Shown: one piece after another, positions 16,191 through 64,000 of the stretch
How positions within the stretch are numbered: the first letter of the stretch is position 1
How the letters are laid out: each line of letters opens with the position of its first letter
Origin: Squalus acanthias
Lineage: Eukaryota
Direction: 5' to 3'
NCBI GenBank assembly: GCA_030390025.1
Contig: CM059452.1
Coordinates: 8,618,001-8,682,000 of the forward strand
DNA length: 64,000 nucleotides
The notes under the pieces: model-generated
What the model saw: the letters and a program-made list of their open reading frames with translations, nothing else
What the model was told of the DNA's origin: nothing
The model's database searches: none
Translations under genes and position numbers: made by a program

Positions 16191-16628
16191 ATGTCGTACC
16201 GTCACCTCATTATATTGTGCCTGGTGTTCGGTAGGTATGGCCAGGCCTTGTGTCTGTTTGCACTAATGTGATGTTAATAGACTTTCTACCTCAGTATTGT
16301 ATTCAAATTTAACTTTTATTTCAGGGGAGATTCAGGCAGATTCGGTGTCACAACCTCAGACCGCGCTGTATGTCACTGAAGGAGATGCTGTGAAAATAGA
16401 CTGTAGCTACACAACAAGCTACAGTAACCCCGATCTGTACTGGTACCAGCAGCACACGAACCAGGCTCCGCGATTTATTTTGTACCGGGATAACAGCAGG
16501 AAAAAGGATGCGGATTTTGCCAAGGGAAGATTCGAGGCCGACCAGACCAACGCAGAAAAGAAGTTTCCTTTAACGATCACTCGAGCGGAAATCCAGGACA
16601 CCGCCGTATATTACTGCGGGCTGAGAAT
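16191..16628 (+). CDS. Intact TCR alpha/delta-type V segment (leader 16191-16230, V exon 16325-16628)
   Basis: MSYRHLIILCLVF-GEIQADSVSQPQ..KIDC..LYWYQQ..GRF..DTAVYYCGLR; canonical splice sites; TGACGT half-CRE at 15966. Confidence 0.93.
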
Positions 16629-16667
16629 CACAGTGTTTTAAAACTCATCTGTCACTGTACAAAAACC
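16629..16667 (+). other. Perfect 23-RSS CACAGTG-23-ACAAAAACC
   Basis: Exact consensus heptamer and nonamer. Confidence 0.97.
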
Positions 16668-16717
16668 TCTGCGGCAGATGGTGCCTCCAGTTCAAGGGAA
16701 CACACCCGTGTCTGTAA

Positions 16718-27715: not shown

Positions 27716-29254
27716 GTCTGTCTGTCACAGGGTTGTAATGTGCTGGACAGACCCTCCAGCCGACTGCTGCTACTGGAAGAGTGTCTGAGACGCTGGATAT
27801 ATTTCCTTTCCTGAGAGATGGAAACAGTTCATGTGGTTACACAATTAAAAAATGAAATAACTCCAGTATTGTTGCTGGGTAAATTTGTTTATAAATAGGC
27901 CTCTTTTACCATGTGAAGGGGTTGAGGTTGGCTTTCAGCCAAGCAGTCAGTAGTGAGGAAACAGATCTTTGATTCACTGCACAGAACCCCCAGATGCTTC
28001 CTGTAAATGACATTGGGTGTTCGAGCCTCCATGACGGCAGTCAGCTGGGTTGCTGCCAAATACTGTGTGGGGCAGATTAGCGTGAATATGAATTGGGGAT
28101 CAAGATGGGATTTAACTATTTAAACATTCAATTATTCAGTAGCGCTCTTTCAAGAAAAAGAATTTTACTTGGTGTAACCTATAAAGAATGATTTCATCTA
28201 AATTCCGTGCTCACAATATTATAAAATAGGATCAGAAAAATTCATCCATATTTTATTTAATTAAAAGTATTGCCAAATAAAGATAATTCTAGATATTTCA
28301 AACCGTTTATTCAGTACTGCACGAAGTGCTGGAGAGAGATTTTAATGAGCCGATACTCACAGTGTAATGAGATCAGTGGGAATCGCAAAGGGAAAAAAAT
28401 AGGTGGAATTGCCTTGAACCCGCTGCATTTCCTTCAATATTCTCACAGAGTTGTGAGCTTCATTGAAACTCAGGGCCCCCTTATCACTGATCAGCAGCCG
28501 CGCACTGTGCAGTTTAATTTGTGCTGATTTGGATTCCTTAACAAGCCTTCTCAAAAAACGGCTGCCAATGGGCAGAGAAATGGCCAGCTTGTGATCTGTT
28601 TCAGCGGGAGATGAAGCATTCATTCTAGTAATATTCTTTAATATACCGCTATGTCCTGATATACTGTTTTCCTGATACCAGTGTATTTTGCACAGTCGGT
28701 CGCTTTTAAATTAGCTGCAAGGATTTGGATGCCGCGGTTTCTGATCGCATTATCAGTTCTGATTCACCAGCTTCTCTTTACCAAAAGCTGATCTGAAGCG
28801 GGCGGGCCCCACATTCTTATGTGTCTCCGTCAACTCACTCCTTAATATCAGGCAAGCGAATTTAGTTTAAACCTAATTTTATAAAGGACTGTCTTAGGGT
28901 CACAGACTCAGGGGCAGTTAGAGAAATGCAATGAGAGACACTTGTATAATGTGAGGGCTTTCTACTCATCTCCGGATCCAAATCGTGTAGCTATAGCCAT
29001 CCACATTGTAAATAGAATCACATCACCCATCTCCCGCATTCAGATAAATAGACCTAAAGCGATTCATAATATAGGGGATACTTTATTGGTACAGAATAGA
29101 TAGCGGGAGATGGAGTCACACATACTGGCAGTCTCTTTAGACCCTGATAATGTAATTTAATCTGAGAGATTCACATCTCCTGTGAAGCAGTGAGGAAATA
29201 AAGGGATTTAATTGACAGTCCAGATGTGAGTCCATTCTGTTGGTGATGTGGAGG

Positions 29255-29338
29255 GTGTGACGTGGATCCAGTAGCCGCCTCTATCAGGGAATCAATAGGC
29301 GGCGCCTGTAACCTCGCCCCCTTCTACCGGGTATTTAA
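29255..29338 (+). promoter_or_regulatory. IgH promoter: CRE-like TGACGT (29258) and TATA-like TATTTAA (29332); no octamer seen
   Basis: Position 100-175 bp upstream of the leader ATG. Confidence 0.55.
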
Positions 29339-29430
29339 CGGCCGGTCACTGGGACCGCAATACAACAGTCCGGGAGCGGGTTTGCTCAGTGAGTTCTTGC
29401 CGGAACCATTTCCCACACATTGCCAGGAGG

Positions 29431-29476
29431 ATGAGGTCGGCGATTTCTCTCAGTCTGTTGCTGGCTTTCTTATCCG
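29431..29476 (+). CDS. IGHV: IgM VH leader exon (MRSAISLSLLLAFLS)
   Basis: 46 nt, phase 1, G|GTGAGT. Confidence 0.93.
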
Positions 29477-29603
29477 GTGAGTAGTTTTTATTGTCCAAGT
29501 CTCTCACTGTTACTGTCTCAGTGTTAGTCTCTCTCTGGAATGTTACAGAGTCAGGAATCATTTCACCAGGGTTAATTCTCGGGGTCTTTGATTGTTTTTA
29601 CAG

Positions 29604-29952
29604 GTGTCCAGTCGGATGTCGTGTTGACTCAGCCAGATGCAGAGACCGGGAGTCCCAGAGGCTCCCTGAGACTGACCTGTAAAACCAGCGGGTTCAATCT
29701 TGGTAGCACCTACATGTACTGGGTCCGACAGGTTCCCGGACAGGGGCTGGAGTGGCTGCTTGAGTACTACAGTTCATCGAACAAGAACTACGCCCCAGGG
29801 ATTAAGAGCCGATTTACTGCCTCCAAAGACACTTCAAACAACATCTTCGCTTTGGACATGAAGAACCTGAGAACCGAAGACACCGCCATCTATTACTGTG
29901 CAAAATACTACAGTGGGTACAGTGGATGGCGCCATGGTGACGGTGACTGCAG
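29604..29952 (+). pseudogene. IGHV: Pre-joined shark IgM VH-D-D-JH exon; J truncated and out of frame
   Basis: [58 protein letters not shown] + ATACTACAGTGGGT + ACAGTGGATGG + CG + CCATGGTGACGGTGACTGCAG|GTAAG; no RSS. Confidence 0.9.
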
Positions 29953-29994
29953 GTAAGAAACATTCACTCTTTCAGCAACTGTTGTATTTGTGCC

Positions 29995-31265
29995 TTTATT
30001 TTATATTTCTGTTTATTTCAATAATTCATTCATTCACTGAAACTTGGGTTCGGTGGATTCTGTATTGAGATTTTTTGCAATGTTTCATTTGATTCTGCTG
30101 CAAAGGGATAATAGATTTAAACAGTTTCTTCAGGAAAAATTTTGTTGAGGGATTGAGTCCCTGATTGATGTGATTTGGTGTTTATCTGCTGATGAGACTG
30201 TGCGCCTGGGTTACTTTAAATACCTAACGGTTGTTGAACTGTTTGGCGTTTCTACAATGTTTACTCTCGGTGAAATCTAATAGTTGTAGGTTTTCTGATC
30301 AAATGTAAACATTATGTGACTAAATGTGTTTGAAATAAGATTGCAGACAGAAAACAGAAAGCTTTAGCGGTCAAAAATAATCTTAAGATATTTTAATTTA
30401 TTTTTATTTGCGATATTTACATTGTCAGCTTTTAATCTAATGTTCACCAACGGTCATATTCAATACTTGAAATATTACTGTAATTTATAACTAAATAATT
30501 AACAAATTTGTAGCCTGAATGAGATTTAACTTAATATAAATAAAGTTATCATATGTAGTAATATCACTCAATATTACAACAATATGCTATATCAATAGTA
30601 ATTTATTAAACCTGATCCGTCTACTCACAATTCCGCTGTCATTATTTTATATTTTTGTTTATTTCAATAATTAATTCGTTCAGTGATAGATGGTTCGCTG
30701 GATTCTGTATTGTGATTTTTTTGCAATGTTACATTTGATTCTGCTGAAAGGGTTTATAGAATGAAGCTGCTTCTCCACAAAACGTTCTGTTGCGGGATTC
30801 AGCCCCTCAGTGATGTGATTTGCTGTTTATCTGCTGAGGAGAGTGTGTGCCTGGGTTACTTTGAATAAGTAAAGTTTGTGAAACTGTTTGGCGTTTCTGC
30901 AATGTTTAATCTCGGTGACATCGAACTGCTGCAGGTTTTCTGATCTGTTTGAAACTGTTTGAAAGTTGATTGTAGGCAGACAACAAGTAGGTTTTATAAA
31001 TCAAAAATCATTTTAAAATAATTTAATGCATGTTTTTATTTAAGTGAGAATTACAGAGTCAACTATTAATCTCTGGTTTACGGTGCTCACATTTAATAGG
31101 TGAAATGTTACTGAAATTACCAATTATATAATTAACAATTGGCAGGTTGAAGGAGAGTTAAATTAATATAACTCAAACGATTATAATGCGGTAATATTGC
31201 CCAATATCACTAAATATGTTGCAGTATTAATATTAATGTATTAAACATTATTCGCCTTCCACAAT
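29995..31265 (+). repeat. Diverged ~640-bp tandem duplication at the start of the J-C intron
   Basis: 29995-30635 aligns with 30640-31265 (e.g. tggattctgtattg, tgatgtgattt, cctgggttacttt). Confidence 0.85.
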
Positions 31266-31872: not shown

Positions 31873-33644
31873 CTCTCAATTTTGACAGACAAATAACCCA
31901 TTGATATTCAAGCAGATTAATTTAATTATAAAAGGTTAATATTAGTTTTGAATTTAATAACAACATCCTGTCTCCCATTGCTGTGCTGTATACGGGATAG
32001 AATTATAGACCGTGAACAGATTACATCTGAGAGTTATGTTTAATTCTCATTAATGTTAAATTGATCAACAAAATCTCTCCTCCATTTGCTCATTAAATTT
32101 CAGTGTCGCAGATGGTCTGATTGATTTGTTCTCCGCCAGTTTTACACTGATCATTCTGGAACTTATTTCCAATAAATAGCAGAATATATTTAATAATTAA
32201 TTTACGAGCATTGTGTGAATTACGGGAGTAAAGTATAAAAAGATTGTTTGTGTTATTAAATAGCGGAGTCTCTGTTACTGACTGCAAACTGGCCGGTTGT
32301 CTTTTAATTCACGAAAATAGTATTTAAAGTTAAGATTGAGGACAGTGTTTAAACTCGAGACCCTGCTTTAGTAAACATACGGTGTTACAGTCCATCGGTA
32401 GTTAGTGAGATGTGACCACGGCCAGACTTTGAACTATTTAAAATAATCCACTCCTAAATCCATCATGTGAAATCCACTCTGAGAAAAGATGGAGTTTATG
32501 TTGTATCAGAGAGTTCAGGAACATGCAGAGTTTACAAGTGTGTAGATAGAGAGCGGGAATGTATTAGAAGTTAGTGACCATTTTAACTTATTCAAATGTG
32601 ATTTGATTTAAATAAAAATAATATATTTGTCTGAATGTCTTTATTTATTAATATGATTTTTAATATTTTAATATTGATAAGTTTCATGTTAATTTACTTG
32701 AAACCCTATAAGTTCAAAAGTTACCAGGCAGAAACAGGATTAAAATTAATATCAACCAATTTTAATACAATGTAGCTAACATCAATATTAACTTAGAATA
32801 TAATGTGAGTGCGAATTAATTAAACATAAATGACCTCCCACAATTGCGTTGTATACTGGACAGGATTACAGTTACTGCAAAATCTCAAGTGTTGGAGAGA
32901 ATTTTAAATTATGTCTAAAATTAATTTAGAAACAATACATGTCTTACTCAGCTGTGCTCAGCTCGAGAAGGTGTCGCCGCAGATTTTAATGAATTAACTT
33001 CGTGTTTTGCCTCGATGATTTTACCGGTTATATTTAATTATGAAATTATATTAACCCAGTGGGTAATCGGTTTTCAATGTAAATGTCTCCTGGTTTGTTA
33101 AATTCTTGCTCTGTCACGGAGTCCCTGTTATATGCAGCAAATTACTCTGGAATGTGAATGATTTCAGTAAACTGGTTTTCAGGGAAGCTAAATCTTATTT
33201 GTTTGTAAGATTGTAGACAGAGGGGGAGAAATGGTTGGAAGTCGAAGAGAGTTTTTCAAATTAATATCAGTTTAATTTCAAAAAACGTGCAGACTTGAGG
33301 TGGTCGGAAATTGACAAGAGAGCAATTAGAAATCAGCTTCATTGAAATTGACAGATTGAACAGATCTATCTGCTGAGAGCACGATTGTTGCACCGTATGT
33401 GTCTGTTCTGTTTCTGTGCGCCTGCTCACTGTGTGAGAATCAGGAGTCCTCCTGACTGGTTGTAAACCTGCTGGTTTTTTCTCTTGTGTTTCATGGAGTA
33501 CAATTCGAAGCATTTATTTTAGAAGCTTGTATCTGTGAGAAATGCGATAGTTTGACTTTAAGTTTGAGGAGGCGTCTCAGAAATTGGATCAGTAACACAG
33601 TTTGTGACAATCAGAAGGAGCATTTCAGAAACACTTCTGGCAGA

Positions 33645-34345
33645 CTGTAGAAGGAGCTTTAATCAGTTTCTAACCCGTGCCGTATCTGACCTGGGTGTGT
33701 TTGATGGGACAGTGTAGAGGGAGATTTACTCTGTACTTAACCCGTGCTGTACCTGCCCTGGGAGTGTTTGATGGGATAGTGTAGAGGGAGCTTTACTCTG
33801 TATCTAACCCGTGTTGTACCTGCCCTGGGAGTGTTTGATGCGACAGTGTAGAGGGAGATTTACTCTGTACTTAACCCGTGCTGTACCTGCCCTGGGAGTG
33901 TTTGATGGGATAGTGTAGAGGGAGCTTTACTCTGTATCTAACCCGTGTTGTACCTGCCCTGGGAGTGTTTGATGCGACAGTGTAGAGGGAACTTTACTCT
34001 GTACCTAACCCGTGTCGTACCTGCCCTGGGTGTGTTTGATGGGACAGTGTAGACGGAGCTTTTCTCTGTCTCTAACCCGTGCTGTTGTGCCCCGTGAATC
34101 TTTGATGGTTCAGTGTAAAGGGAGAATTTACTCTGTATCTAGCCCATGTTGTACCTGCCCTGGAAATGTTTTATTGTGAAATGTAGGATGGAGCTTTGCT
34201 CTGTATTTAACCAGTCCGGTGCCTTACCCGGAGTGTTTGAGAGTGCTGTGCAGACTTGGCGTTGCTCGGGATCAATCCCTTCCTATACCTGAGGGTACAG
34301 CGGATGGCAGGACAGTGCAGAGGGAGCTTTACTCTGTATCTGTAC
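33645..34345. repeat. 67-bp minisatellite (about 9 copies plus a partial)
   Basis: gtgtagagggagctttactctgtatctaacccgtgctgtacctgccctgggagtgtttgatgggaca; starts at 33712, 33779, 33846. Confidence 0.92.
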
Positions 34346-35099
34346 TGTAACAGATCTGTGAGTGCTTTGTCCCGTGTTGTTCAAGGAACCTTAATGTGCG
34401 TCCAACTAATAAAGTGTGAGTTTCCGCACCAGATATATAAAAATAAAACTTTCCATTGCTCCGATGAAACAACCACGCATTAATTGAGTTTAACCTTATT
34501 GCAAATAAAACTGCCCAATTTTTAATGAATTAATAAACTTTAAGCATTCTGAGTATCAGATAATGATTGAATGAGATTGGCCTGATCCTGAGCTCACTTT
34601 CAGAACAAACAGTTTCAGGAAGTGACTGTAACGCTCCAGAAAGCAGCGCCTGTTCTGATCTGATGGGAGGCTGGAAGTTATTTTGACAATTTAAATAGAG
34701 AATGTCGAGACTCCCGCTCCAAATAACCATCATGGGAACATTATGTTTGAAAGCATTATTTCGTTCAATTGGTTTATTGAAAAGGTAACAGGCCGGGACA
34801 AACGCGTGTGAGGTGCAGCTATTGGACTGGGTCACAGCACAAGGCTCACAGTCACTGAGCCGCACCTCTGTGAAACATTTAAAGAGAAACAGTCAGCCTG
34901 CGATGAGTCGTCATTCACAATAAGCTTTAAGACACTGTGACGGGATCCGATTGAATCATTTGATTCAAATTCCTCAGTTCCTTTATTTTAAACATCCTCT
35001 TGCATTATAACAAACAATAAAATAGATCTGATAGAGGTGTTCAACATTATGAAGCGTTTCCTTCCATTAAATCGGGAAGAACTAATTCTGCTGAGCCGT

Positions 35100-38050: not shown

Positions 38051-38350
38051 CGACACAGTCTCCTCCCACCCTCTACGCCCTGCTCTCCTCCTGTGAACAA
38101 CCCAACACCGGCGGCCCCGTCACCTACGGCTGTTTGGCGATGGACTACTTCCCGGAAATCACCAGCCTTTCCTGGAGTAAAGATAAAGAGCCGATCACCA
38201 CTGGATTTAAGACCTATCCGTCAGTGTTCAACAAGCAGGGAACCTACACCCTGAGCAGCCAGTTAACTATCACCGAGTCAGAGGTGGGGAGCAGCACAAT
38301 CAACTGCCAGGTGCGACAAAGTGGGTCGGACTTAAGCATCAAAATGCTAG
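38051..38350 (+). CDS. IGHM: IgM Cmu1 exon
   Basis: [47 protein letters not shown]; cccag| and G|GTCAG, phase 1. Confidence 0.95.
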
Positions 38351-38379: not shown

Positions 38380-39215
38380 GTGAAAAGCAGAGAAGTTATG
38401 TTCAACTTCTATACAACCTTGGTTAGACCAGACTTAGAGTACTGTGCACACTTCTGGTCTCCATATCACACTTAGTGCACTGAGCACAGTTCTGGTCTCC
38501 ATCTCACACTTGGAGTGCTGAGCGCATTTCTGGCCTCCATATCAGATTTACAATACTGTGCACAGTTCTGGTCTCCACAACATACTTAGAGTATTGTGAA
38601 CAGTTGTAGTCTCCATATCACACTTAGTGTACTGTGCACAGTTCTGTTCTCCATATCACACTTACAATTCTGTGCACAGTCCTGGTCTCCATATCACACT
38701 TGGAGTGCTGAGCACAGTTCTGGTCTCCATATCACACTTACAATACTGTGCACAGTTCTGGTCTCCATATCACACTTAGTGTACTGTGCACAGTTCTGGT
38801 CTCCATATCACACTTAGAATACTGTGCACAGTTCTGTTCTCCATATCACACTTAATGCACTGTGCACAGTTCTGGTCTCTATATCACACTTACAATTCTG
38901 TGCACAGTTCTGTTCTCCATATCACACTTAATGTACTGTGCACAGTTCTGTTCTCCATATCACACTTACAATACTGTGCGCAGTTCTGGTCTCCATATCA
39001 CACTTAGTGTACTGTGCACAGTTCTGTTCTCCATATCACACTTACAATTCTGTGCACAGTTCTGTTCTCCATATCACACTTACAATACTGTGCACAGTTC
39101 TCGTCTCCATATCACACTTAGTGTACTGTGCATAGTTCTGTTCTCCATATCACACTTCCTGTACTGTGTAGAGTTCCGGTCTCCATATCGCTCTTAGAAT
39201 ACTGTGCACAGTTCT
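38380..39215 (+). repeat. CR1 RT fragment expanded into a 38/39-bp minisatellite (about 20 copies)
   Basis: [26 protein letters not shown] followed by repeats of ttagtgtactgtgcacagttctggtctccatatcacac. Confidence 0.92.
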
Positions 39216-39339
39216 GCTCTCTGGAAGTGCCAGGTTAGCGTGAGCCTGACAGTAAAGGGCCTGTTAAAATATAAGGACACTTTGCATTTCTTAATCATTT
39301 ATTTTATAAGGAATGTCATTAACATGTGTTCTTTTGAAG

Positions 39340-39657
39340 TATCGAAACGTGATATCGTCCCTCCAACTGTGATCCTCACCCTGAGTTCCAGTGAAGAAAT
39401 CACCAGCAGCAGGTCTGTAACCGCCGTGTGCTCAATCATCGATTTCCGTCCAAAGTCACTGACCGTGAATTGGCTGAAGAATGGACAACTCATGGATTCG
39501 GGCTTCGTCACCTCTCCCGTCTTTGAAGTGAACGGGAACTTCTCGGCGACCAGTCGGCTGACATTCACCGCCGGGGATTGGTTCGCCGACTCGGTCTATA
39601 CCTGCCAGGTCACTCATGAACGAATCCCCCAAAGCAGAAACATCTCCAGATCTAAGG
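39340..39657 (+). CDS. IGHM: IgM Cmu2 exon
   Basis: [44 protein letters not shown]; ttgaag| and G|GTAAG. Confidence 0.94.
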
Positions 39658-41833: not shown

Positions 41834-42142
41834 ATGAGATCCAATGCAACGATCCAGAAATCACTCTTCCGCAACCGTCACTAGAACAAGTCTTACTGGA
41901 GGCGACGGTGACCTTAACCTGCGTCGTGTCTAATGTTCCTTATGGAGTCAACGTGTCCTGGACCCGAGAAAAGGAGACTTTGAAATCAGAGATTGCCGTC
42001 CAACCCGGAGAGGCTCCCAACAGCGTGATCAGCAACTTAAACATCTCGACACAAGCCTGGCTGAGTGGGGATGAGTTCTACTGCGTGGTAAGCCATCAGG
42101 ATATGCCGACTCCTATAAGAGATTCCATCCACAAGGAAAAAG
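41834..42142 (+). CDS. IGHM: IgM Cmu3 exon
   Basis: [45 protein letters not shown]; ctcag| and G|GTGAG. Confidence 0.95.
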
Positions 42143-42661: not shown

Positions 42662-43053
42662 TTGAAGATCCGCGGGAACCGTCCGTGTCTGTCCTCCTGC
42701 CCCCGGCAGAAGAAGTCTCCGCTCAGAGGTTCGTGACCCTCACCTGCTTAGTGAGAGGTTTCTCCCCCCGAGAGATCTTCGTCAAGTGGACCGTCAATGA
42801 CAAGCCGGTGAATTCCGGCAACTACAAGAACACCGAGGTGATGGCGGAGAACGGCAGCAGTTCCTTCTTCATGTACAGCCTGTTATCAATTACAGTGGAG
42901 GAGTGGGCCAGCGGCGCATCTTATACCTGTGTGGTGGGACATGAAGCGATCCCCTTGAAGATCATCAACAGAACGGTTAATAAAACCAGCGGTAAACCCA
43001 GTTTTGTGAACATTTCCCTTGTTCTGATGGATACCGTCAATTCTTGTCAATGA
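42662..43053 (+). CDS. IGHM: IgM Cmu4 exon plus secretory tailpiece (internal donor for the membrane form after 42991)
   Basis: [50 protein letters not shown]; N-x-S glycan site and penultimate Cys. Confidence 0.96.
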
Positions 43054-43097: not shown

Positions 43098-43489
43098 GGC
43101 CTTTTCTTCCAATCGTCAGTTACACACACAGCCGCTCAATTAATTTTGTTTTCCATTTTTGCCAAGGGGAGGGCTGTTTATCTGAAGTAGGATATTTGCT
43201 GGTCTCGGACCCAAGGCTTGTACAGCCAGCGCTCCCAGCTCAGATACACCACGGGTTAGAGACAGACTGAAGCTCTTTCATGACAGGATTCCTCAAAGTC
43301 ACTTCAGCAACTTTCCTCCCGCTGGGGGAAATCAAAAAGTTCCCATTTCAGACAGACAAACGCAGCACATTTAGATCTCGGTGTCCCTGTTTCTCGTGCT
43401 GTCCATCCCTTCAGAATTGGGGCCTGTTTTATTTTGCAGCATCGCACCCTCTGGGATACGATATAAGGCAACTCACGCACACGAACTGT

Positions 43490-44883
43490 CACCCCTACTC
43501 CCCCACCAGAGAGAGGGGAAAGGGCAATTGTTAACCCACTGTACCTCCCACTCCCCCACTAGAGAGAGGGGAAAGGGCAATTGTTAACCCACTGTACCCC
43601 CCACTCCCCCACCAGAGAGAGGGGAAAGGGTAATTGTTAACCCACTGTACCCCCACTCCCCCACCAGAGAGAGGGGAAAGGGCAATTGTTAACCCACTGT
43701 ATCCCCACTCCCCCACCAGAGAGAGGGGAAAGGGCAATAGCTAACGCACTGTACCCCCCACTCCCCCACCAGAGAGAGGGGAAAGTGCAATTGTTAACCC
43801 ACTGTACCTCCCACTCCCCCATCAGAGAGAGAGGAAACGGTAATTGTTAACACACTGTACCCCCACTCCCACACCAGAGAGAGGGGAAAGGGCAATTGTT
43901 AACCCACTGTCCCCCCACTCCCCCACCAGAGAGAGGGGAAAGGGCCATTGTTAACCCACTGTACCCCCCACTCCCCCACCAGAGAGAGAGGAAAGGGTAA
44001 TTGTTAACCCACTGTACCTCCCATTCCCCCACCAGAGAGAGGGGAGAGGGCAATTATTAACACACTGTCCCTCCCACTCCCCCACCAGAGAGAGGGCAAA
44101 GGACAATTGTTAACCCACTGTACCCCCGCTCCCCCACCAGAGAGAGGGGAAAGGGCAATAGCTAACCCACTGTACCCCCCACTCCCCCACCAGAGAGAGG
44201 GGAAAGGGCATTTGTTAACCCACTGTACCCCCACTCCCCCACCAGAGAGAGGGGAAACGGCAATAGCTAACCCACTGTACCCCCCACTTCCCCACCAGAG
44301 AGAGGGGAAAGGGCAATTGTTAACCCACTGTACCTCCCACTCCCCCACCAGAGAGAGGGGAAAGGGCAATTGTTAACCCACTGTATCTCCCACTCCCCCA
44401 CCAGAGAGAGGTAAAAGGGCAATTGTTAACCCACTGTACCGCCACTCCCCCACCAGAGAGAGGGGCAAGGGCAAGTGTTAACCCACTGTACCCCCACTCC
44501 CCCACCAGAGAGAGGGGAAAGGGCAATTGTTAACCCACTGTACCTCCCACTCCCCCACCAGAGAGAGGGGAAAGGGCAATTGTTAACCCACTGTACCCCC
44601 ACTCCCCCACCAGAGGCAGTGGAAAGGGCAATTGTTAACCCACTGTACCCCCACTCCCCCACCATAGAAAGGGGAAAGGGCAATTGTTAACCCACTGTAC
44701 CCACACTCCCCCACCAGAGAGAGGGGAAAGGGCAATTGTTAACCCACTGTACCTCCCACTCTCCACCAGAGAGAGTGGAAAGGGCAATTGTTAACCCACT
44801 GTTCACTCACACACCCAACAGAGAGAGGGGAAAGGGCAATTGTTAACCCACTGTACCCCCCACTCCCCCACCAGAGAGAGGGG
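43490..44883. repeat. 52/53-bp minisatellite (about 26 copies)
   Basis: cccactcccccaccagagagaggggaaagggcaattgttaacccactgtac. Confidence 0.95.
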
Positions 44884-47212: not shown

Positions 47213-48064
47213 GCGGCGGTTGTTATACACATAAACACACACATGAAGGCATTTAGACACAAACGCACACACACTTAAACATAAACACACACAATTACAC
47301 ATAGATACACCTACATAGAATTACACATAAACACACACACTTACACATCAACACACACATTAACACACAAACAGAGACGATACCAAAACAAGAGATCGTC
47401 AGACTCACAAATGCAAACACTAAAGCGCGCAAAAAACGTCAGGCTATCGACGAATGTAGAATTAAAATTCACTTTTTTACGGACTCAGTATCACACGATT
47501 ATACTGATTGAATAATTCCTGATTCCATAACATCTCACATTTCTCTATTCTGCTCCTACACATACACTGAATCAATGTTCTTGTTGGAAACTGATACAAG
47601 TTAATTATATTCAGAGCACTGCCAAAACAAATAAATAAACAAGATTATAACTCACATCTAATATCTTACCCAGCCCCCTTGACAGTCTCCAAATAAGTAG
47701 CTATCTAAACCTATCATTAAAATAATCGATATCAATCAGTAAACCTCCCTCGATATTTCATATAATTCTCGAATGATAGATTGTATGAAATTGATGCAAA
47801 ATCAATTAGCGTGTGACATTGAAGAAAAGAAATATCATATTTTCCAACACGGACTATAGGAGGATCCTAAAGGAAGAGCGACTGTGGAATTAGGAACAGA
47901 GATAGATTGCTGACAGTGATTAACTTAACACAAGATATACATTGAAAATTCAATTAGAGAACAAACTGATACCTTAAGGAAAATAAAAGAGAATATATAA
48001 TAATAATAAGATATCTTTATTTAATAAAGGATCTGAATATATTTCCTCCTCTACATCCCCGTAG

Positions 48065-48192
48065 ATTCGTCAGACCACATCTTGATTGAAGACTATGAGG
48101 AAGAGAGCGGCAGCATCTGGACAACCGCTTCCACATTCATCATCCTGTTCTTCCTGAGCATGTCCTACAGCGCTGCCCTCACTCTAGTGAAG
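48065..48192 (+). CDS. IGHM: IgM transmembrane exon TM1
   Basis: cgtag|DSSDHILIEDYEEESGSIWTTASTFIILFFLSMSYSAALTLVK|GTGAG; Ig TM motif. Confidence 0.93.
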
Positions 48193-48332
48193 GTGAGAAG
48201 ATTCAATCCACTCACACTTCGATCTGACTGAAGCGGTTTGACAAATCTCTAAAAGTTTCATTGATTAAAACCCTGAGATAAATGCCCCAAACCACTAAAT
48301 CTCTGCTTCATTCTTTTATCCCTCTTTTACAG

Positions 48333-52255: not shown

Positions 52256-54749
52256 TATCATGAGTGATTTTAATCTACATATAGATTGGGCTAACCAAAT
52301 TAGTAACAATACCGTGGAGGAGAAATTCCGAGAGTGTATACGGGATGGTTTCCTGGACCAATATGTCGAGGAACCAACTAGAGCCAGGCCATCGTAGACT
52401 GGGTATTATGTAATGAGAAAGGATTAATTAGCAATCTTTTTGTGCGAGGCCCCTTGGGGAGCAGCGATCATAATATGATAGAATTCTTCATTAAGATGGA
52501 GAGTGAATTAGTTGACTCAGAGACTAGGGTCCTGAATTTAAATAAAGGAAACTACGATGGTATGAGGCGCGGGTTGGCTAGGGTGGATTGGGGGACGTTA
52601 CTTAAATGGTTGACGGTGGATAGGCAATGGTAAACATTTAAATATCGCATGGATGAACTACAGAATTTGTTCATCCCTGTTTGGAAAAAAAAAAAGTTGA
52701 CTCAACCGTGGCTAACAAGGGAAATTAGGGATAGCATAAAATCCAAGGAGATGACATATAAATTGGCCAGAAAAAGCAGCAAACCTGAGGTTTGGGAGCA
52801 GTTTAGGATTGAGCAAAGGAGGACAAAGGGATTAATTAAGAGGGGGCAAATAGAGTATGAGAGTAAGCTTTCACGGAACATAAAAACTGACTGTAAAAGC
52901 TTCTATATATATGTAAAGAGGAAAAGATTGGTGAAGTCAAGCGTAGGTCCGTTGCAGTCGGAATCAGGGGAATTTATAATGGGGAACAAAGAAATGGCAG
53001 ACCAATTAAATACATACTTTGGCTCTGTCTTCACAAAGGAGGACACAAATAACCTCCCAGAGATGTCGGGGAACATAGGTTCTAATGAGAGGGAGGAACT
53101 GCATGAAATCAGTATTTGTAGGGAAATGGTGTTAGGGAAATTGATGGGATTGAAGGCCGATAAATCCCCAGGGCCCGATAATCTACATCCTTGGGTACTT
53201 AAGGAAGTGGCCCTAGAAATAGTCAATGCATTGCTGGTCATCTTCCAAAATTCTATAGACTCTGGAACAGTTCGCATGGATTGGAGGGTAACTAATGTAA
53301 CTGCACTATTTAAAAAAGGTGGTAGAGAGAAAACGGGGAATTATAGACCGGTAAGCCTGACATCGGTAGTGGGGAAAATGCTAGAGTCCATTATAAAAGA
53401 TGTAATAGCAGAGCACTTGGAAAACAGCAACAGGATCGGACAAAGTCAACATGAATTTACAACAGGTAAGTCTTGCTTGACTAACCTACTGGAAATTTTT
53501 GAGGATGTGACTGGTAGAATAGATAAGGGAGAACCAGTAGATGTGGTGTATTTGGACTTTCAGAAGGCTTTCGATAAGGTCCAGCATAAGAGATTAGCGT
53601 GCAAAGTTAAAGCACATGGGATTGGGTTAAGGTACTGACTTGGATAGAGAACTGGTTGGCAGACAGGAAGCAAAGAGTTGGAATAAACGGGTCTTTTTCC
53701 GAGTGGCAGGCAGTGACTAGTGGGGTACCGCAGGGATCGGTCCTTGGACCCCAGCTATTCACAATATATACTAATGATCTAGGCGAGGGAACTAGATGCA
53801 ATATCTCCACGTTTGCAGACGACACAAAGCTGGGTGGGCGCGTGTGCTGTGAGGAGGATGCAGAGAAACTCCAGTATGATTTGGACAGGTTGGGTGATTG
53901 GGCAGATGCATGGCAGATGCAGTATAATGTGGATAAATGCGAGGTTATCCACTTTGTTGGCAAAAACAGGAAGGCAGATTATTATCTGAACGGCAATAGA
54001 TTGGGAAAAGTGGAAGTGCAACGAGATCTGGGAGTCCTTGTGCACCAGTCGCTGAAGGTAAGCATGCAGGTGCAGCAGGCGGTTAAGCAGGCAAATGGTA
54101 TGTCGGCCTTCATAGCGAGAGGATTCGAGTACAGGAGCAATGATGTCTTGCTGCAGTTGTACAGGGCCTTGGTGAGACCACACCTTGAGTATTGTGTGCA
54201 GTTTTGGTCGCCTTATCTGAGGAAGGATGTTCTTGCCATGGAGGGAGTGCAGCGAATATTCACCAGACTGATACCTGGGATGGCATGAATGACGTATGAA
54301 GAGAGATTGGGTCGATTAGGTTTATATTCGCTAGAGTTTAGAAGAATGAGAGGGGATCTCATTGAAACTTATAAAATTCTAACAGGACTAGACAGACTAG
54401 ATGCAGGAAGGATGTTCCCGATGGCGGGAGAGTCCAGAACCAGGGGTTACAGTCTAAGGATAAGGGGTAACCCATTTAGGACTGAGATGGGGAGGAATTT
54501 CTTCACCCAGAGAGTGGTGAACCTGTGGAATTCTCTACCACAGAAGGCAGTTGAGGCCAATTCATTAAATATATTCAAGAAGGAGATAGATATATTTCTT
54601 GAGGCTAAAGGGATCAAGGGATATGGGGAGAAAGCAGGGACAGGGTACTGAATTTGGATGATCAGCCATAATCTCATTAAATGGCGGAGCAGGCTCGAGG
54701 GGCCGAATGGCCTACTCCTGCTCTTATCTTCTATGCTTCTATGCTTCTA
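52256..54749 (+). mobile_element. CR1 LINE, 5'-truncated, relatively young
   Basis: ORFs 52442-52633, 52649-53638, 53656-54288, 54289-54651; (ctatgctt)n tail. Confidence 0.95.
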
Positions 54750-54790
54750 AAATGATCTGCTGTTTTCTGTCTAATTCTAAACCAGACACC

Positions 54791-55222
54791 ATGTGCTCCC
54801 CGTGTTCCATACTGATAATAATGGTCGTGCTGTCCAGTGAGTACATGTGTAAATGGTCATTGTGTGTTTCACGGATTATCCTTACTCCCAGACTTTTGAC
54901 ACATTCTGTGTTTTGTTACAGGAACGAGTGGCAAAGAATCAGTGTCCCAGGATCCGTCTGAATTAATGGTTCAGCAAGGAAAAAACATTATATTGAACTG
55001 CAGTTACTCGGCAGCTGCTCCAACTCTGTTCTGGTACATCCAGTATCCCGGGGAAGCTCCGAGATATTTACTGAGGATAGATAGCTCGGGGACGGTAGAC
55101 CGGTCTCCAGATTTCCCAGGCCGGTTTTCTGCTGTTTTGCACAGAGACAGCAAAACGGTTCCTTTAAATATCACCGCGGTTCTTGTCTCCGACAGCGCCG
55201 TGTATTTCTGTGCCATGAGCCC
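54791..55222 (+). CDS. Intact TCR alpha/delta-type V segment (leader 54791-54836, V exon 54922-55222)
   Basis: SVSQDPSELMVQQGKNIILNC..LFWYIQ..GRF..DSAVYFCAMS. Confidence 0.92.
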
Positions 55223-55262
55223 CACACTGCTGAAGAGATACAGCGGATCCCGTACAAAAACC
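55223..55262 (+). other. RSS CACACTG-24-ACAAAAACC
   Basis: Follows the V exon; spacer counted as 24 nt. Confidence 0.88.
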
Positions 55263-55286
55263 CACACTGAGAGTTCCAGTTAGTGT

Positions 55287-55300
55287 TCACCAGAGGGCGC
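55287..55300 (+). promoter_or_regulatory. CTCF-consensus motif TCACCAGAGGGCGC
   Basis: About 25 bp after the nonamer. Confidence 0.6.
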
Positions 55301-55519
55301 TCTCACATCGCTAACCAGCAGCGATCATTCAGCCTCCACAGTGAGTGTCACAGGGAGATTCTTAATAGAGCGACATGTCACAACACTCAGCAAGAACAGG
55401 TCAGGTCCACTTGGGGATTTTTTAGGTGATTTCAACTCGTATTTATAATAAAAATGAACGTCACAAATCATGTCTGTGGCGCCTTAACTCCCCTTTTGTC
55501 CTTTCTCTATTGTGGACAT

Positions 55520-56020
55520 TTCTGGGCAGCACACGTTAGGATGATGTCAAGGCCCTGGAGAGGGAACAGAGGAGGTTTACCAGGATGATACCAGGGATGA
55601 GGGAGTTCAGTTATGTGGAGAGATTGTAGAAGCTGGGATTGTTCTCCTAAGAGCAGAGAAGGTTAAGAGGAGACCTAATAGAAGTATTCAAAATTATGAG
55701 TTGTTTTGACGGAGCAAATAGGGAGAAACTATTTCCTCTGGCAAGTGGGTTGATAACCAGAGGGAATAGATTTAAAATAATTGGAAAAAGAACTAGAGTG
55801 GAAATGAGGAGACATTTCTTCACAAAGAGGTTTGTTAAGATCTGAAAGGCAATGCCTGAAAGGGTGGTGGAATCAGATTTCATGGGAACTTTCAAAAGGC
55901 AATTGGACATGTACTTGAAGAGGACTCATTTGCAGGGTTATGGAGAAAAAGCTGGGATATGGGACTAAACAGGCACGACAGGCCGAATACCCCTTCTGTG
56001 CTGTAAGATTCTATGAATCT
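55520..56020 (+). mobile_element. CR1 3' fragment
   Basis: EQRRLRGDLIEVFKIM-like sequence; absent from the paralogous flank at ~12870. Confidence 0.85.
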
Positions 56021-56574
56021 GTGATGCCCCTTCCGTGCCTGCCTGCAATATTGTGCAGCCCTTTACTCATCTCCCCTGTCAGTTTCCCGGACCCTTTGAT
56101 CGCGGTCTGCACACTGGGTTTATTTGATCAGAGTATGTTGCTGGGTCAGAGACAGTTTATACACAATGAACAGATTTCACAAGGTAGTGATTGTGCTCTT
56201 TAAAACAGGCCCCAAGCATAGAGTTCCCCCAATGTCCATTGTCCTTCAGAATGTCTCTATAATGCTGGAATATGTTCCGTCACCATTAACAATCTCTCAG
56301 CTTCCGGGTTCCAATAACCAGGCAAGAGTTTCATTCCCACCCCCGGTCTCTAAAAGCGGAACCATTCCCCCAAAAGGACACTGACGATAGCCCAGCTCGG
56401 GGTGTTTCCATTCACTGGCAGCCAGCTCACCACCTACCGGTCTCACAGCACCACTGGGGACACCAGGAAGTGAGGTGAGAGCATCCTGAGACACGACAGC
56501 AGATTATTGAGGGCGGGGATTAGAACGGGTGTCTTCAAATATCCAACCCCCCTTTTACAGAGCGGACAGCGACA

Positions 56575-57050
56575 ATGCGGCTACTCAGCATCTGGGCTGT
56601 GTGGGGGGCATTTCTGACAGGTAATTATGGACCAAACACATTTCATCTTTTCTATCATTTCTAAACATGGTTTGACTCTGAATTTTAAACACCCGCTGGG
56701 GTGATCTTTTCAAGTTTGAACATGTTTTTCAGATCTGAGTCTTGGAGATTCTGTCACTCAGCCGCTGTCCTCAGGAGTTAAGACAGAAGGAGAAGCGATG
56801 ACTGTAAACTGTAGCTACGACACAAAATGGAGCACCTTTAATTATTTATATTGGTACCGGAACCACCCAGACACACAGCCCGAGTTTATACTGTGGAAGG
56901 ATCATGATGGTGTTGATGGTGTTGAGCATAAAGCAGATTTTGGTAAAACCCGTTTCTCTGCAGAAATCCAGACCTGGACTAAATTCACCAGTTTAACCAT
57001 CTCGGGGCTGCAGCTGACCGACGCTGCAGTTTATTACTGCGCCCTGAGAC
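56575..57050 (+). CDS. Intact TCR alpha/delta-type V segment (leader 56575-56620, V exon 56733-57050)
   Basis: MRLLSIWAVWGAFLT-DLSLGDSVTQP..VNC..LYWYRN..RFSAE..DAAVYYCALR. Confidence 0.92.
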
Positions 57051-57089
57051 CACACTAATGGAAACCAGTTAAACCCTGGTACAGAAACT
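57051..57089 (+). other. 23-RSS CACACTA-23-ACAGAAACT
   Basis: Follows the V exon. Confidence 0.82.
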
Positions 57090-57801
57090 CCCGCCGTTTT
57101 GTAGATCAGCGGCTCCGCCTGCTGAAGCCGGATATAAGGCTCACTTTGTGCTGTTTGCGGTTCCGGCCATCCTGAGAACTGTTCCCAAAGTCTCTCATTT
57201 GTCGGTTGGGTTCAGTCTGTGCAGTTTCCGCGTTGTTTTCCCCGTTACTCACTGGGAACTGTCTCTCCTGAATCACTGCCACCTTCATCTTCAGACTATT
57301 GGCTGTCGCTCTTTTGCCTGTTTTCTGGACAGTTTTCTCTGAGTTTGCGCACCAGCTGGGGAATGGGAGTCTCGCGGGGTCAGAGTTCAGCCGAGACTTC
57401 TTTGTTCTGAAGGTGTTTTGACTCCTCAATGGTTTATTACATCGTCACTGAATGTGTTCCCTCCGTTCAGTTCATTTCCTGCCGACTGGAGCGCCAGGTC
57501 TGAGTGCGATTCTGACACAGAATGAGAACTGGTTTATATTTGTTTCACTATGTTTGAAAGTTGAGGTGCCCATTCCATGAACAGGGATTGGAAGCACCGT
57601 CCGATCGAATACCTTATTATCAAATTAGCAACACGATTATTTTTATTAATAATAAACATGATGTTTCATGTTCTGTACTGTTAGTTGGATAGCGATTGAT
57701 TTGTCAGTTTTTACACGGATACTCTCCTGTGAGAAGTACTGACAGTCCCCGTTTCTCCCCACACTGCCCGCTATCCAGTTGTCCCTGTCACATTCCGGCA
57801 G

Positions 57802-58371
57802 TGTGTTTGTACGGGGCTCCCTGTGGTTCCTGTCACTGTGTCTCTCAGCCCGCAGTGATACACCGCGCTGTCAGACAGCCGTAGGCCGCGGATGGTGAAA
57901 TTCCCCTCACTTTCTGAAATGTCGTGAAATGCGGAAATTCGAGCCCCCCTGTCCTCTGCTTTGAAAACATCTCCCGAAGAAGGACTGTAGATCAGCAATG
58001 TTGGCCCTTTGTCGCGGTCCTGACGGTACAGTTGTAAGGAATGTGAAGGAGCAGTGGTCGAATTGCTGTAATTACTGGTCACCGAGTCTCCTTCAAACTG
58101 CATCGCTGCAAGCGGCCCCTGTGAGACCGAGTCCGCACAACTAACACCCGCAGAAATATAGAAATACACAACTTTAAACCTATCTTATCATTTTATTATA
58201 ACTGACAGTTTCAAGGTGACGGAACATACAGGAAATTGAGGGAAAATACAGTTAAAAGGAAGATTCTCTATGGCAGTGATACGTGCAAGAGGGAGGATTG
58301 TGTAACTTGTAAACTTTACCAGTTAAGAGAGCCGCAGCTGTGACGAATGAATTAAAAGTAACTCCTAACAT
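57802..58371 (-). pseudogene. TCR V pseudogene (leader 58320-58371, V 57841-58147, RSS 57802-57840); acceptor AG->GG, first Cys and FR2 Trp lost
   Basis: ADSVSQGP..EGDSVTSNYS..LQLYRQ..DSAVYHCGLR; CACAGTG-23-ACAAACACA. Confidence 0.88.
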
Positions 58372-58837
58372 GTTTGCAGAGAGTTGATAACAGATTTGAA
58401 CAGAACGGGTTAAACCTGAAATATTTTAGTCAAGACTTGGGAAGGTGTTGAATGATATGCGTCTCTGCCGATTGGTTCATTCCTGACAGAGTCAACAGGT
58501 GAGATCCAAGCAGCTCACAGTTCCTTTTTACTCCAATTCTTCCAATCAACTCACAGCTACGTTGTTCTCCAATTCATCCAATCAGCTCATAGTTCCTTTG
58601 TTCGTCACTTCATGACGTCTGTGGTCAAAATGCTCTTGCTGACTGAACAAGCGACTGGGAGGAAATAGAGTGAGTGCGTAATTAAGGGATTATACAGCAT
58701 CAGAAATAATGAGCGGCTTTAATCAACTATAATCTTGATCTTTGAGAGCCAATAGCTGGCAATCGTGTTTTTATACATGACCAAAAACCTTAAATCTCCT
58801 CAATGACCTCATTCTAAGGCTTAGGTAATACAATGCG

Positions 58838-58851
58838 CCAGCAGAGGGCGA
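58838..58851 (+). promoter_or_regulatory. CTCF-consensus motif CCAGCAGAGGGCGA
   Basis: Motif match. Confidence 0.55.
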
Positions 58852-59014
58852 CAAACTCAAGAATGATCATTAGAAAGTCATGTGATGTAAACGCCAAGGC
58901 CAACAGCAATCGAAGCCTGAATGAGGTCACAATGGGGACGCCCCCTGCAGTGTGTGGGTGGAACAATGAGCTGAACAGCCCGGGTTACCGCTCTCCTTCT
59001 CAATCTCTGCCTCA

Positions 59015-59400
59015 TTGAAGCATACAAAATTATTACAGGGCTTGATAGGGTGGATGCTGGGAGAATGTTTCCCTTGGCTGGGGAGTCTAAAACCAGGGGC
59101 CACAGCCTCAGGATAAAGGTTAGGCCATTCAGGACTGAGATGAGAAGAAATTTCTTCACACAGAGGGTGGTGAATCTTTGGAATTCTCTACCCCAGAGGG
59201 CTGTGGAGGCTCAGCCATTGGGTATATTCAAAACAGAAGTCGATAGATTTCTGACTAGTAAGGGCATCAAGGGATATGGCGCTAGGGCCGGTGAATGGAA
59301 TTGAGGCAGAAGATCAGTCATGATCTCATTGAATGACGGAGCAGGCTCGAAGGGCCGAATGGCCTACTCCTGCTCTTATTGCTTATGTTCTTATGTTCAT
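59015..59400 (+). mobile_element. CR1 3' fragment
   Basis: ORF 59050-59304; (ttatgttc) tail. Confidence 0.88.
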
Positions 59401-59415
59401 TCAATTCCAAGTCAC

Positions 59416-59988
59416 TGTGAGAGAATCAGTCAATTTCTAATAATACTGGCGGCTGTGTTGAACAGTAAGTATTGGATTATATTTAAAACACAGGTTAGCT
59501 GGTTGATGCAAAGAGCGTGTGCAGGGATTTAGTGCAATTACCGATCAGAAATGTCCATAGGATCGACAGCTGTGTAGATGGAGGGTTACCCACTCTCATA
59601 CAGATAGACACAAGTTTCGATTTAATCTTCTGCTCTTCTGTTCCCCTATCTTCACAGGCGGGCTGTGTGCAGATCCAGTAACTCAGTCGCCGGTGACAAT
59701 TGCCGTGTCAACAGGGGGTTCGGTGCAGTTAGATTGTGAAAATAAAAGCCCGGATATTGACTACATGCAATGATATCGGCAGAAATCGGCACAGCCACCA
59801 AGCTGGATAATTAGCAAAGTGGTAGCACTGAAGGAAGACGAAATCTCAGGACAATATCTGGCAGCTGCTAATACGTCGAGAAAGTACGGTTACCTCAATA
59901 TAAGCAGCATGAGTGTGGAGGACGGAGCGGTCTATTACTGTGCAGTGAGGCACAGCGTCAGAAAAAGCAAAGGCCCCGGACAAAAACC
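59416..59988 (+). pseudogene. TCR V pseudogene (ATG-less leader ~59416-59464, V 59658-59950, RSS CACAGCG-22-ACAAAAACC); FR2 Trp->TGA at 59771
   Basis: ADPVTQSP..GGSVQLDC..YMQ*YRQ..EDGAVYYCAVR. Confidence 0.9.
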
Positions 59989-60114
59989 TCAGCGAGAATT
60001 TACAGCTCCATCAAGTGTTCTTTTGTGCTGCTTTCTGTGGGGTTAATTTGATCCCAAACCCACGGAGACTAAAGACAGCAAGGTTTCTATTTCAACGAGT
60101 TGTATTTGTGTCTG

Positions 60115-60470
60115 TGTCTTTGCCCAAATCAGCGGAGAACCGGTTTGGGAAATCTGGAGACTTCACTCCCTGCCCCGAGCTGTATCTCCTCATTAAATAT
60201 CTCGGATCTTCCCCGGGGATACTGGTTGTACCAGAAGAGGTAGGGAAATCTATCGGCTGTGGAGTAACTAGAGTTCAGTATTAAGATCTGTCCTTCCTGA
60301 ACCGTTAATTCAAGTGGATCCTGGGAAAATGAGGCTTCACCATTGTAACAAAATACTGAATCTGTCAGAAGTCTGGGAGTAAATATAACCCATGAAATAC
60401 ATACGATATTTTAAACATAGACTCACCGGGCAGCACGACCATTATTATCAGTAAGAAACATGGGGAGCTG
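60115..60470 (-). pseudogene. TCR V pseudogene (family of 1348/54922): leader ATG and acceptor deleted, Cys->Ser, frameshift, 3'-truncated
   Basis: SQDPLELTVQEGQILILNSSYSTADRFPYLFWYNQY../..SPDFPNRFSADL. Confidence 0.88.
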
Positions 60471-60579
60471 GTGACTGGTTTAGATGGGAGTCTCCGGCTC
60501 TGATACCAGAACAACATTAACTATTGGTCACTGGCCCCATCTCACAGACTGACGCTGTTAAAGGGCGAACATTGGCTTT

Positions 60580-60938
60580 AATCCTCGTGCAGTTCTGAGG
60601 AGAACAATTTCACTCCGTTCTCGCATCCCCGCTCTGACGTCATGAATTGGCGAACAAAGTAGCTGTGAGCTGATTGGTTGAATTGGAAAACAAAGGAGCT
60701 GCAAACTGATTGGATAAATTGGAGAACAAAGGACCGAGAGCTGATTGGATGTGATCTGCTGACTCTGTCGGGAACGGACCAATCGGCAGAGACCGGATAT
60801 TACTCAACATCTTCCCAATTCTTGACTACAAGACAATTTCAGCTTCAAACCGTTCTGTTCAAATCCACCACCAACTCTCTGCAAACATGTTGGGTGTTAC
60901 TTTTTATTTATTCGTCGCAGCTGCAGCTCTCTTAACTG
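60580..60938 (+). pseudogene. Orphan V promoter (CRE 60635-60642, CCAAT repeats) and leader exon 60887-60938 with dead donor (G|ATAAGT)
   Basis: Inverted paralog of 617-1010 and 58320-58620. Confidence 0.75.
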
Positions 60939-61489
60939 ATAAGTTCACAAGTTACACAGCATTGTGTTTCACATCTGTATCATACATTATATTTAATCGG
61001 TCAGTTCCCTGAACACATGAATATCAATAGGTTGATCCGAAGTGAAGAAAACCATCAGGATCCACCTTGACTCAACACTGAACACTGTTTGGGGAAACTC
61101 GACAAACTCCCTCAGTGAATGAAAGCGGATGAGTTGAGGTGAGATTACAGGCGAATGGCAGACAGACAAGCCCGTCGGCGTCAATGACGGACATTGACAG
61201 ACACACGAGTCTTAAACCCACAGACAGTTTGGAGTTTTCCCTTCACATCACAAGAGGTGAAGGTGAGGAACTGATCCCGTTGGAAGGTGCTGAAGGTTAA
61301 TTAAAGGATGTTTATTCAGTCGATCCCAGCGCCATCCCGTGAGCAGCCCCTGAGCTGTGGGGATATATATTTATGTTCAACTGCCCTGATTTGCTTCACA
61401 GTTAAGTGTTGAGGGTGACGGGCTGATTCTGGTCGGTAAACAGAGTGAAGTGACATTGTTTAATTTAATATCGCTCTGGGCTCTTGCAG

Positions 61490-61600
61490 GACATGGGCGA
61501 GGAGACTCCGGTTCACAGACACCGGCTGCAACCACAGTAAATGAAGGAGACGATGTTCAGTTGTATTGTAATTATACAGCCACAAGCATCAATCATATCT
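61490..61600 (+). pseudogene. TCR V FR1 fragment ending in a TA/TCTA microsatellite
   Basis: ttgcag|GHGRGDSGSQTPAATTVNEGDDVQLYCNYTAT. Confidence 0.78.
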
Positions 61601-62167
61601 ATCTATCTATCTATCCATATATATATATATATTGTGCAGGTAGATGAGTGAAAGTCTTTCATAGAGGTAACCAGGCTGCTGACTGACAAACAGATGGACA
61701 GCGGCCTGTCTGGGCCTCGGTCGCTTGTTCTCCCTGAGCAGGGGGACCAGTTTGTATTCGGGTTCCCACAGTGCGGAGACACAGAGAAAGGAATCACTGG
61801 ACACCGGGTAATACAGGAGGAGAAACATACTGACTGTCTGGAGCCTGTGCACAAAGGTCACGAGCATCTGGCACCAGTAGAACTGAAAGGAAATGAAAGT
61901 CAGTTGTTGTGAATGTGGGTTGTGAGTTGTTGTTTATTTTGCAGATCAGAAAGGGTTAAATCTGCGAGCGCAAGCTGTCAATTTCCGAGCTCGAATACAT
62001 CTGATTGATGTTTCTGTCGCTGTAAGTGTTGATGTAAAAGGCTCTACATTCGCCATCAGCATCACCGCAACACATCTCGCTATAGATGAGCCCTGGAAAC
62101 TGCCCATAGATACACTGACTGTCTGTTTTCACCCAGGATCTCAAAAGTGTAAAAGTTCCCATTATAT

Positions 62168-62181
62168 CCGCCAGAGGGCGC
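62168..62181 (+). promoter_or_regulatory. CTCF-consensus motif CCGCCAGAGGGCGC in a paralog of the 11728-11787 flank; no adjacent V seen
   Basis: gtgtaaa(a/g)gttcccat..tatccgccagagggcgcc..atgtttctcgctgct shared between the two sites. Confidence 0.65.
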
Positions 62182-63864: not shown

Positions 63865-63980
63865 AGACAACACTTGCGGTAACACTGCCTGCGGCAGCCC
63901 CGCCCACAGCTTCCGTTCGCTGCTCTCGCTCTGACCCGCCTTGCCCGCCCTGTGTTTTTGGAGAGATTGCTGCAGCTGTT
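63865..63980 (+). promoter_or_regulatory. Paralog of the upstream region of the V at 7048; predicts another V just past the window end
   Basis: Aligns with 6853-6957. Confidence 0.65.
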
Positions 63981-64000
63981 ACGGGACTGTAAACAGGAGG

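Follow-up and report, generated by a model that had tools for sequence, protein, structure and literature searches.

An IgM minicluster among TCR V exons

The DNA analysed here, a stretch of 64,000 nucleotides from Squalus acanthias (C29:8618001-8682000 of the assembly G000; hereafter the window), contains a single IgM cluster, L001, amid many TCR alpha/delta-type V exons bearing 23-spacer signals. L001 has the organization of a shark IgM minicluster: downstream of leader, V, D1, D2 and J come four Cmu exons, a secretory tail and a transmembrane exon (Table 1). The leader, V, Cmu1-4, secretory tail and transmembrane exons are all open, with canonical splice sites. In homologue searches the V matched antibody heavy chains, and the best named relatives of Cmu4 were shark IgM heavy chains (81-86%). 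The cluster keeps its leader intron, its J-C intron and about 700 bp of promoter. An octamer was looked for in this promoter and not found, and a search for GGTRAG splice donors within 29600-30300 returned none beyond the canonical one.

Table 1. Features of the IgM cluster L001, in positions of the window
Feature	Position	Strand	Remarks
Tract about 1% different from L002	28750..31500	+	Promoter, leader, V, joint and start of J-C intron; 5' edge sharp near 28750, 3' edge gradual
Leader exon	29431..29476	+	Intact, GT donor
VH exon part	29604..29905	+	Frame open to YYCAK
D1	29906..29918	+	1 nt trimmed at 5' end; 3' end complete to the heptamer point of L002; V-D1 joint common to L002 only
D2	29919..29929	+	Minus 2 nt at the D1-D2 joint (GT overlap); joint unique to the window and source of the frameshift
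J, 5' end	29930..29937	+	Germ-line J minus 1 nt; D2-J joint common to L002 only; contains the one CCATGG repeat left by the 24-nt deletion
J, 3' end, and intact splice donor	29938..29957	+	Exon ends at 29952; read out of frame
Cmu1 exon	38051..38350	+	Own frame open; read on from the joined VDJ, it reaches TGA after about 15 codons
Cmu2 exon	39340..39657	+	Intact
Cmu3 exon	41834..42142	+	Intact
Cmu4 and secretory tail	42662..43053	+	Intact
Transmembrane exon	48064..48195	+	Open; borders approximate

According to the accessible part of Flajnik et al. 2025 (PMC12227049), IgH clusters lie in linkage with TCR alpha/delta in four elasmobranchs, and TCR V exons are interspersed among them. The TCR alpha/delta-type V exons with 23-spacer signals around L001 resemble the antigen-receptor complex described there; since this linkage has already been published, the genomic setting of L001 is ordinary. 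Searching for a TCR constant region with the Pfam PF09291 profile gave 0 of 36 candidates, and no shark TCR chain was among the results of the homologue searches. One TCR-type V with a perfect 23-spacer signal (16267-16670, + strand) lies 13 kb upstream of the IgM cluster, in the same orientation; until the last joint was made, the 12-spacer signal of D2 could have served as its partner. Minisatellites of about 67, 38 and 52 bp occupy 33640-34370, 38430-39220 and 43485-44880, in introns and the 3' flank, and their copy numbers differ among paralogues.

V, D1, D2 and J are fused out of frame

L001 is a non-productive shark IgM gene in which V, D1, D2 and J are fused without added bases. A first-pass annotation, made from the sequence alone, had claimed a V-D1-D2-J fusion with no recombination signal left between V and J, and a heptamer-spacer-nonamer scan of that interval indeed returned none. 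TACAGTG occurs twice (29909 and 29918), each time without the initial C and with no nonamer at 12 or 23 nt; a cryptic signal able to rescue the V was also sought, and none was found. Between the V Cys codon at 29897 and the splice donor after 29952 the joined exon is 2 nt short of frame, so that the J core is read out of frame. The predicted spliced product, of 146 residues, ends at the TGA in Cmu1, as the annotation had worked out, and the unspliced reading frame also ends as given there.

Both D segments of L001 match signal-flanked D segments in unjoined clusters of the same genome, so the fusion is not a chance resemblance. The earlier assignment to a shark IgM cluster is supported. D2 is of the L029 type, and J is of the type found in L014, L015, L038 and L043. 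The annotation had proposed aligning the exon to unrearranged D1, D2 and J segments of the species; when this was done, all three joints proved to be templated by segments found unjoined in the same genome, and the parse could be refined. Its pieces stand, except that the first A of its 'D1' belongs to V. The 'CG' that it read as N addition is the 5' end of J itself, since the unjoined J of L014, L015, L038 and L043 starts ACGCCATGG; N addition is thus zero.

A sister cluster carries two of the three joints

A search of the assembly with the V-J stretch gave 50 matches, 30 of which were fetched. Among these, L002 at C29:6.60 Mb, 2 Mb from L001, is 99% identical to it in V and beyond J and carries 405 more bases between V and J. 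Its arrangement is VD1-signal-spacer-signal-D2J, with the D1-D2 spacer and WGQG kept. With one mismatch allowed, searches of the 3.7 Gb assembly for the V-D1 joint and for the D2-J joint gave exactly two places each, L001 and L002 (reversed controls, 0), whereas the D1-D2 joint of L001 has no duplicate there. Their presence in both of these diverged paralogues shows the V-D1 and D2-J joints to be heritable. L001 and L002 are sisters with support 100/100 and branches of 0.0039 and 0.0040 in a tree of 35 loci over 1.1 kb, from which 11 loci of a second VH family and L052 were left out; a first V-exon tree of all 47 rows did not resolve, owing to a TCR V outlier. RAG excision is one-way, and the state of L002 is therefore ancestral. 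Joints of RAG type, as first proposed, are supported, but not a single event: L002 shows at least two joining rounds, with a copying step between them. Compared with the unjoined J types, the J of L002 has two or three substitutions next to one another that resemble the tandem changes of shark hypermutation, and the 5' nonamer of its D2 has one extra mismatch.

The L001 junction equals that of L002 minus the 379-bp signal-bounded spacer and 2 nt (381 nt), minus a further 24 nt, plus one substitution at the V end (last codon AAA in L001, AGA in L002; a derived change at 29904). The 2 nt correspond to a GT overlap between the end of D1 and the start of D2, and their loss alone shifts the frame, with or without the J deletion; by computation, a blunt D1-D2 joint in L002 would stay in frame. 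The ends of the D1-D2 loss lie at the heptamer borders, with small trimming and no signal remnant, as in a RAG coding joint. Of the 1,583 pairs of 3-bp microhomologies in the V-J interval, 3 fall on both signal borders, which makes RAG the likely cutter. The 24-nt loss is of another kind: it is an in-frame deletion between two CCATGG repeats (6-bp microhomology) that removes WGQG, and because it lies inside J, away from any coding end, it is not RAG trimming. The annotation was thus right that this J lacks WGxG, but not in ascribing the loss to the joining event. In another cluster, L022, the J has lost 8 nt between short repeats, D2 has been shortened next to its heptamer and the D1-D2 spacer lacks about 120 bp; these lesions amount to repeated damage near joints that is not of RAG type.

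Between about 26.6 kb and the end of the window, more than 35 kb, L001 and L002 are collinear. They differ by about 1% from 28750 to 31000, in the tract of Table 1; elsewhere the difference is 12-14% upstream of 28750, 4-8% over the C region and, in the downstream block of TCR V exons, 1.5-6% with most values at 2-4%. The 5' flank of L001 differs by 10.9% or more from each of the 30 other flanks in the comparison, whereas that of L002 is 3-4% from several and continuous with the family. Cmu3-4 of L001 is nearest to two other clusters and not to L002, which indicates that mosaicism is common in the IgM cluster family. On the simplest reading of these sequences, an old duplication was overwritten by a promoter-V-J tract from an L002-type donor, with L001 as the recipient. 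L040 and L042 were considered as the source of the L001 5' flank or V and rejected, as they belong to a different VH family. A processed retro-copy of a rearranged transcript was likewise rejected, because the promoter and both introns are retained inside the tract. The TCR V block at 53600-64000 of the window is 94-98.6% identical to C29:6627800-6638300; it was duplicated along with the IgM cluster, so Ig and TCR segments expand as one unit.

Joining states across the assembly

The J pattern was found at 48 places; with 20 further stretches, 50 loci were parsed, and 46 clusters were counted once L052, in which a TCR V accompanies an orphan J, and three loci missing V or J had been set aside. 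These counts are lower bounds, and unmerged haplotypes are possible. Pre-joined clusters make up 34 of the 46, and all eight possible joining states are present: fully joined (15), unjoined (12), VD1D2-J (8), VD1-D2J (4), V-D1D2J (3), V-D1-D2J (2), V-D1D2-J (1) and VD1-D2-J (1).

L001 is the sole exception among the full joins, the other 14 of the 15 being in frame by length with a WGxG-type motif; the L055 junction has an internal stop, and there are V stops in four full joins. Grouped by eye according to common junctions, the full joins form eight lineages, seven of them in frame (p = 0.0026 against one third). This in-frame excess is a signal of selection to which L001 is the exception. Identical joints recur among duplicated paralogues and, on this sequence evidence, pre-joining in this shark group is germ-line in general.

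A second parent-daughter pair consists of L030 (V-D1D2-J, G000:C3620:78341) and L020 (V-D1D2J, G000:C449:750882). Their D1-D2 joint and V end are common, L030 retains the D2-J signals and L020 is joined; the two are nearest neighbours in the J intron, 3.9% apart.

Several loci have unusual structures. In L014 and L015, where D1, D2 and J are unjoined, a D1-like G-rich remnant forms the end of V and precedes a normal V-type signal; this is either an open-and-shut joint or a re-split gene. L052 and L053 (C29:7.90 and 9.07 Mb) have a J without nearby V or D, preceded by repeat sequence instead of a signal. A second VH family, of about 70% DNA identity and with the same D, J and Cmu, comprises L038-L040, L042, L043, L045, L046, L050, L051, L054 and L055; 10 of these 11 loci are pre-joined.

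Is the last joint germ-line or somatic?

Sequencing runs were searched for the joints of L001 and L002. Twenty-two runs were listed, with a best share of words of 0.55; no RNA carrier was listed, and the runs have no bearing on expression. X1 and X4, from one sample, each gave two contigs that match L001 as far as 29918 and beyond it read the D1 heptamer, as would be expected if another animal carried the older V-D1 joint. In the filtered records of X1, X3, X4 and X9 (three samples; X3 read to 55%), no listed contig spans 29923-29927, the joint peculiar to L001, nor does any in those of X1 span the D2-J joint of L002; such gaps are no evidence of absence. On L002:1801-2221, the DNA-type run X3 gave a full VDJ joint at a depth of 96.6 that is absent from G000. 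These four runs therefore come from other animals or species, and the set of joined clusters, as read from such contigs, differs between animals or species. X8, a DNA-type run with another organism label, matched the L003/L005 junction letter for letter, making this in-frame, fully joined VDJ a candidate for a conserved, selected germ-line antibody. With X8 and the X1 and X4 contigs, pre-joining in this group is visible beyond the assembly as well.

Because the last joint of L001 has neither a duplicate in the assembly nor a sighting in a second animal, we infer its germ-line status from other evidence. Its lack of N addition fits the little or no N addition of germ-line-joined Ig genes; in the accessible part of Lee et al. 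(PMC2193156), germ-line light-chain joints are without untemplated bases. If the germ line here were VD1-D2J, as in L002, the assembly would have caught the somatic D1-D2 joint of a lymphocyte. Shark thymocytes and B cells are documented to make the same joints somatically, in random order and with many out of frame (PMC2435157, accessible part), and a joint of single copy in the assembly would suit such an origin, as would the derived changes in the first kb of the J intron (6-7 on L001 against 0-2 on L002), a mild skew that hypermutation could also give. Upstream and in V, however, derived changes number four in L001 and five in L002, and the L001 V shows neither an excess nor tandem changes. 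A consensus of many cells should, by established practice, give the germ-line form, and the 24-nt deletion would be required as a second lesion. Two junction ends in X9, which is RNA by guess, apparently carry untemplated letters on an informal parse, whereas L001 has none. We consider a somatic joint unlikely.

Probable serial joining and its alternatives

The last joint might also be real and heritable but belong to the L002 locus, the tract being the other L002 allele or a mis-joined paralogue misplaced by the assembler. A difference of 1% would suit two alleles, and the tract starts abruptly at 28750; the divergent 5' flank of L001 could likewise result from an assembly join. Yet identity to the L002 cluster falls gradually to 92-96% over the C region of collinear clusters, and the affinity of Cmu3-4 to two other clusters marks mosaicism as a common condition, so we give misplacement little credence; serial joining would hold regardless. 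Loss of the D1-D2 spacer by an ordinary microhomology deletion, with no part for RAG, is still less probable. A 3-bp GGT repeat does flank the lost spacer, the adjoining J deletion is of such a kind and L022 has similar non-RAG deletions, but few microhomology pairs end on both signal borders, as counted above, and other joined clusters also lose their signals in pairs. Least credible is the reverse order, in which a fully joined ancestor gave rise to L002 by re-splitting through conversion from an unjoined cluster. The D1-like remnant and V-type signal of L014 and L015 hint that odd exchanges near heptamers may occur. Re-splitting would require one crossover within 13 nt of D sequence and another within 11 nt, however, and the L002 5' flank continues that of the family. 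The L002 spacer is 2.6% from the nearest of 18 relatives, against a divergence of 0.9% between L001 and L002; it is thus older than the split of the pair, which argues against re-splitting.

Serial germ-line joining by RAG, followed by decay to a pseudogene, is quite probably the history of L001. An older cluster would already have had its V-D1 and D2-J joints; a copy of it was probably made, and RAG probably went on to fuse D1 with D2 in the L001 copy only, presumably in germ cells or an early embryo and without TdT. The 2.7-kb promoter-V-J tract was likely transferred to an older flank, either by conversion or by unequal crossover. A separate 24-nt microhomology deletion, before or after the D1-D2 joint, stripped WGQG from J. 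The L001 transcript would be expected to be lost by nonsense-mediated decay. Each germ-line cut would permanently remove one somatic joint, and L001 most likely represents a neutral dead end in this one-way process. With a pair differing by one RAG joint, joining was repeated on the same gene lineage, and the last event is bounded by the 0.9% divergence of its members. The pair bears on whether RAG still edits the shark germ line and offers a defined PCR target.

More tentatively, germ-line RAG cutting might be a recurring ratchet on half-joined IgM genes, closing one joint each time and in any order, with the frameshifted L001 very young, unpurged and perhaps still segregating; we regard this wider reading as possible rather than probable. 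If it is true, present-day germ-line V(D)J recombination is testable by one PCR across a population.

Comparison with known germ-line-joined genes

The annotation's statement that germ-line-joined IgH clusters are known in cartilaginous fish agrees with the literature. Germ-line-joined IgM clusters (V DD-J, V D1-D2J and VDJ) of the horn shark and little skate were described by Kokubu et al. 1988, as cited in the accessible parts of PMC2193153 and PMC5192425. As far as these sources go, L001 shares with them the V-D1-D2-J-Cmu minicluster, the excised signals and the coexistence of split and joined clusters in one genome; it differs in that its genome holds an immediate two-joint precursor (99%) and all eight states, and in the non-RAG deletion of its J. 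The NS4 (kappa) light chains of the nurse shark (Lee et al. 2000; PMC2193156, accessible part) are alike in their joined and unjoined pairs of up to 99%, trimming without N addition and recent origin; two of six joined NS4 genes are pseudogenes, and an age of 0-7 Myr was argued from light-chain pairs. Unlike L001, a split light chain has one joint, so serial rounds cannot show. In the accessible part of PMC2193153, polymorphism between joined and unjoined forms was not seen by Lee et al.

Nurse shark IgM1gj (PMC4279169 and PMC5192425, accessible parts) also has a fully pre-joined VDJ on a mu-type constant region. However, it is in frame, neonate-expressed and without Cmu2, whereas L001 is out of frame, lacks WGxG and has Cmu2 intact; an IgM1gj-like identity was rejected on these grounds. 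In the literature searched, mostly outside subscription papers, no parent-daughter pair showing a second germ-line joining round was reported. The phenomenon has been known since 1988; what is added here is the parent-daughter pair, together with the census.

Functional consequences

As predicted from its sequence, the VDJ of L001 cannot yield an antibody chain; even if V were replaced at the FR3 heptamer-like word, the J would still lack WGxG. Its intact Cmu may only reflect youth. By analogy, this region could serve as a putative acceptor in inter-cluster switching, which is mentioned in the accessible part of a review (PMC4279169); unless the intact Cmu acts as such a switch partner, a dead L001 is unlikely to matter to the animal. 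With every signal lost, the L001 V can join neither its own nor TCRdelta segments, in keeping with the first-pass suggestion that this VH could not rearrange normally to TCRdelta D/J. A VH donor for IgV-TCRdelta trans-rearrangement would offer a usable 23-spacer signal 3' of V or D1; none is present in L001, and L002 still carries the D1 3' signal.
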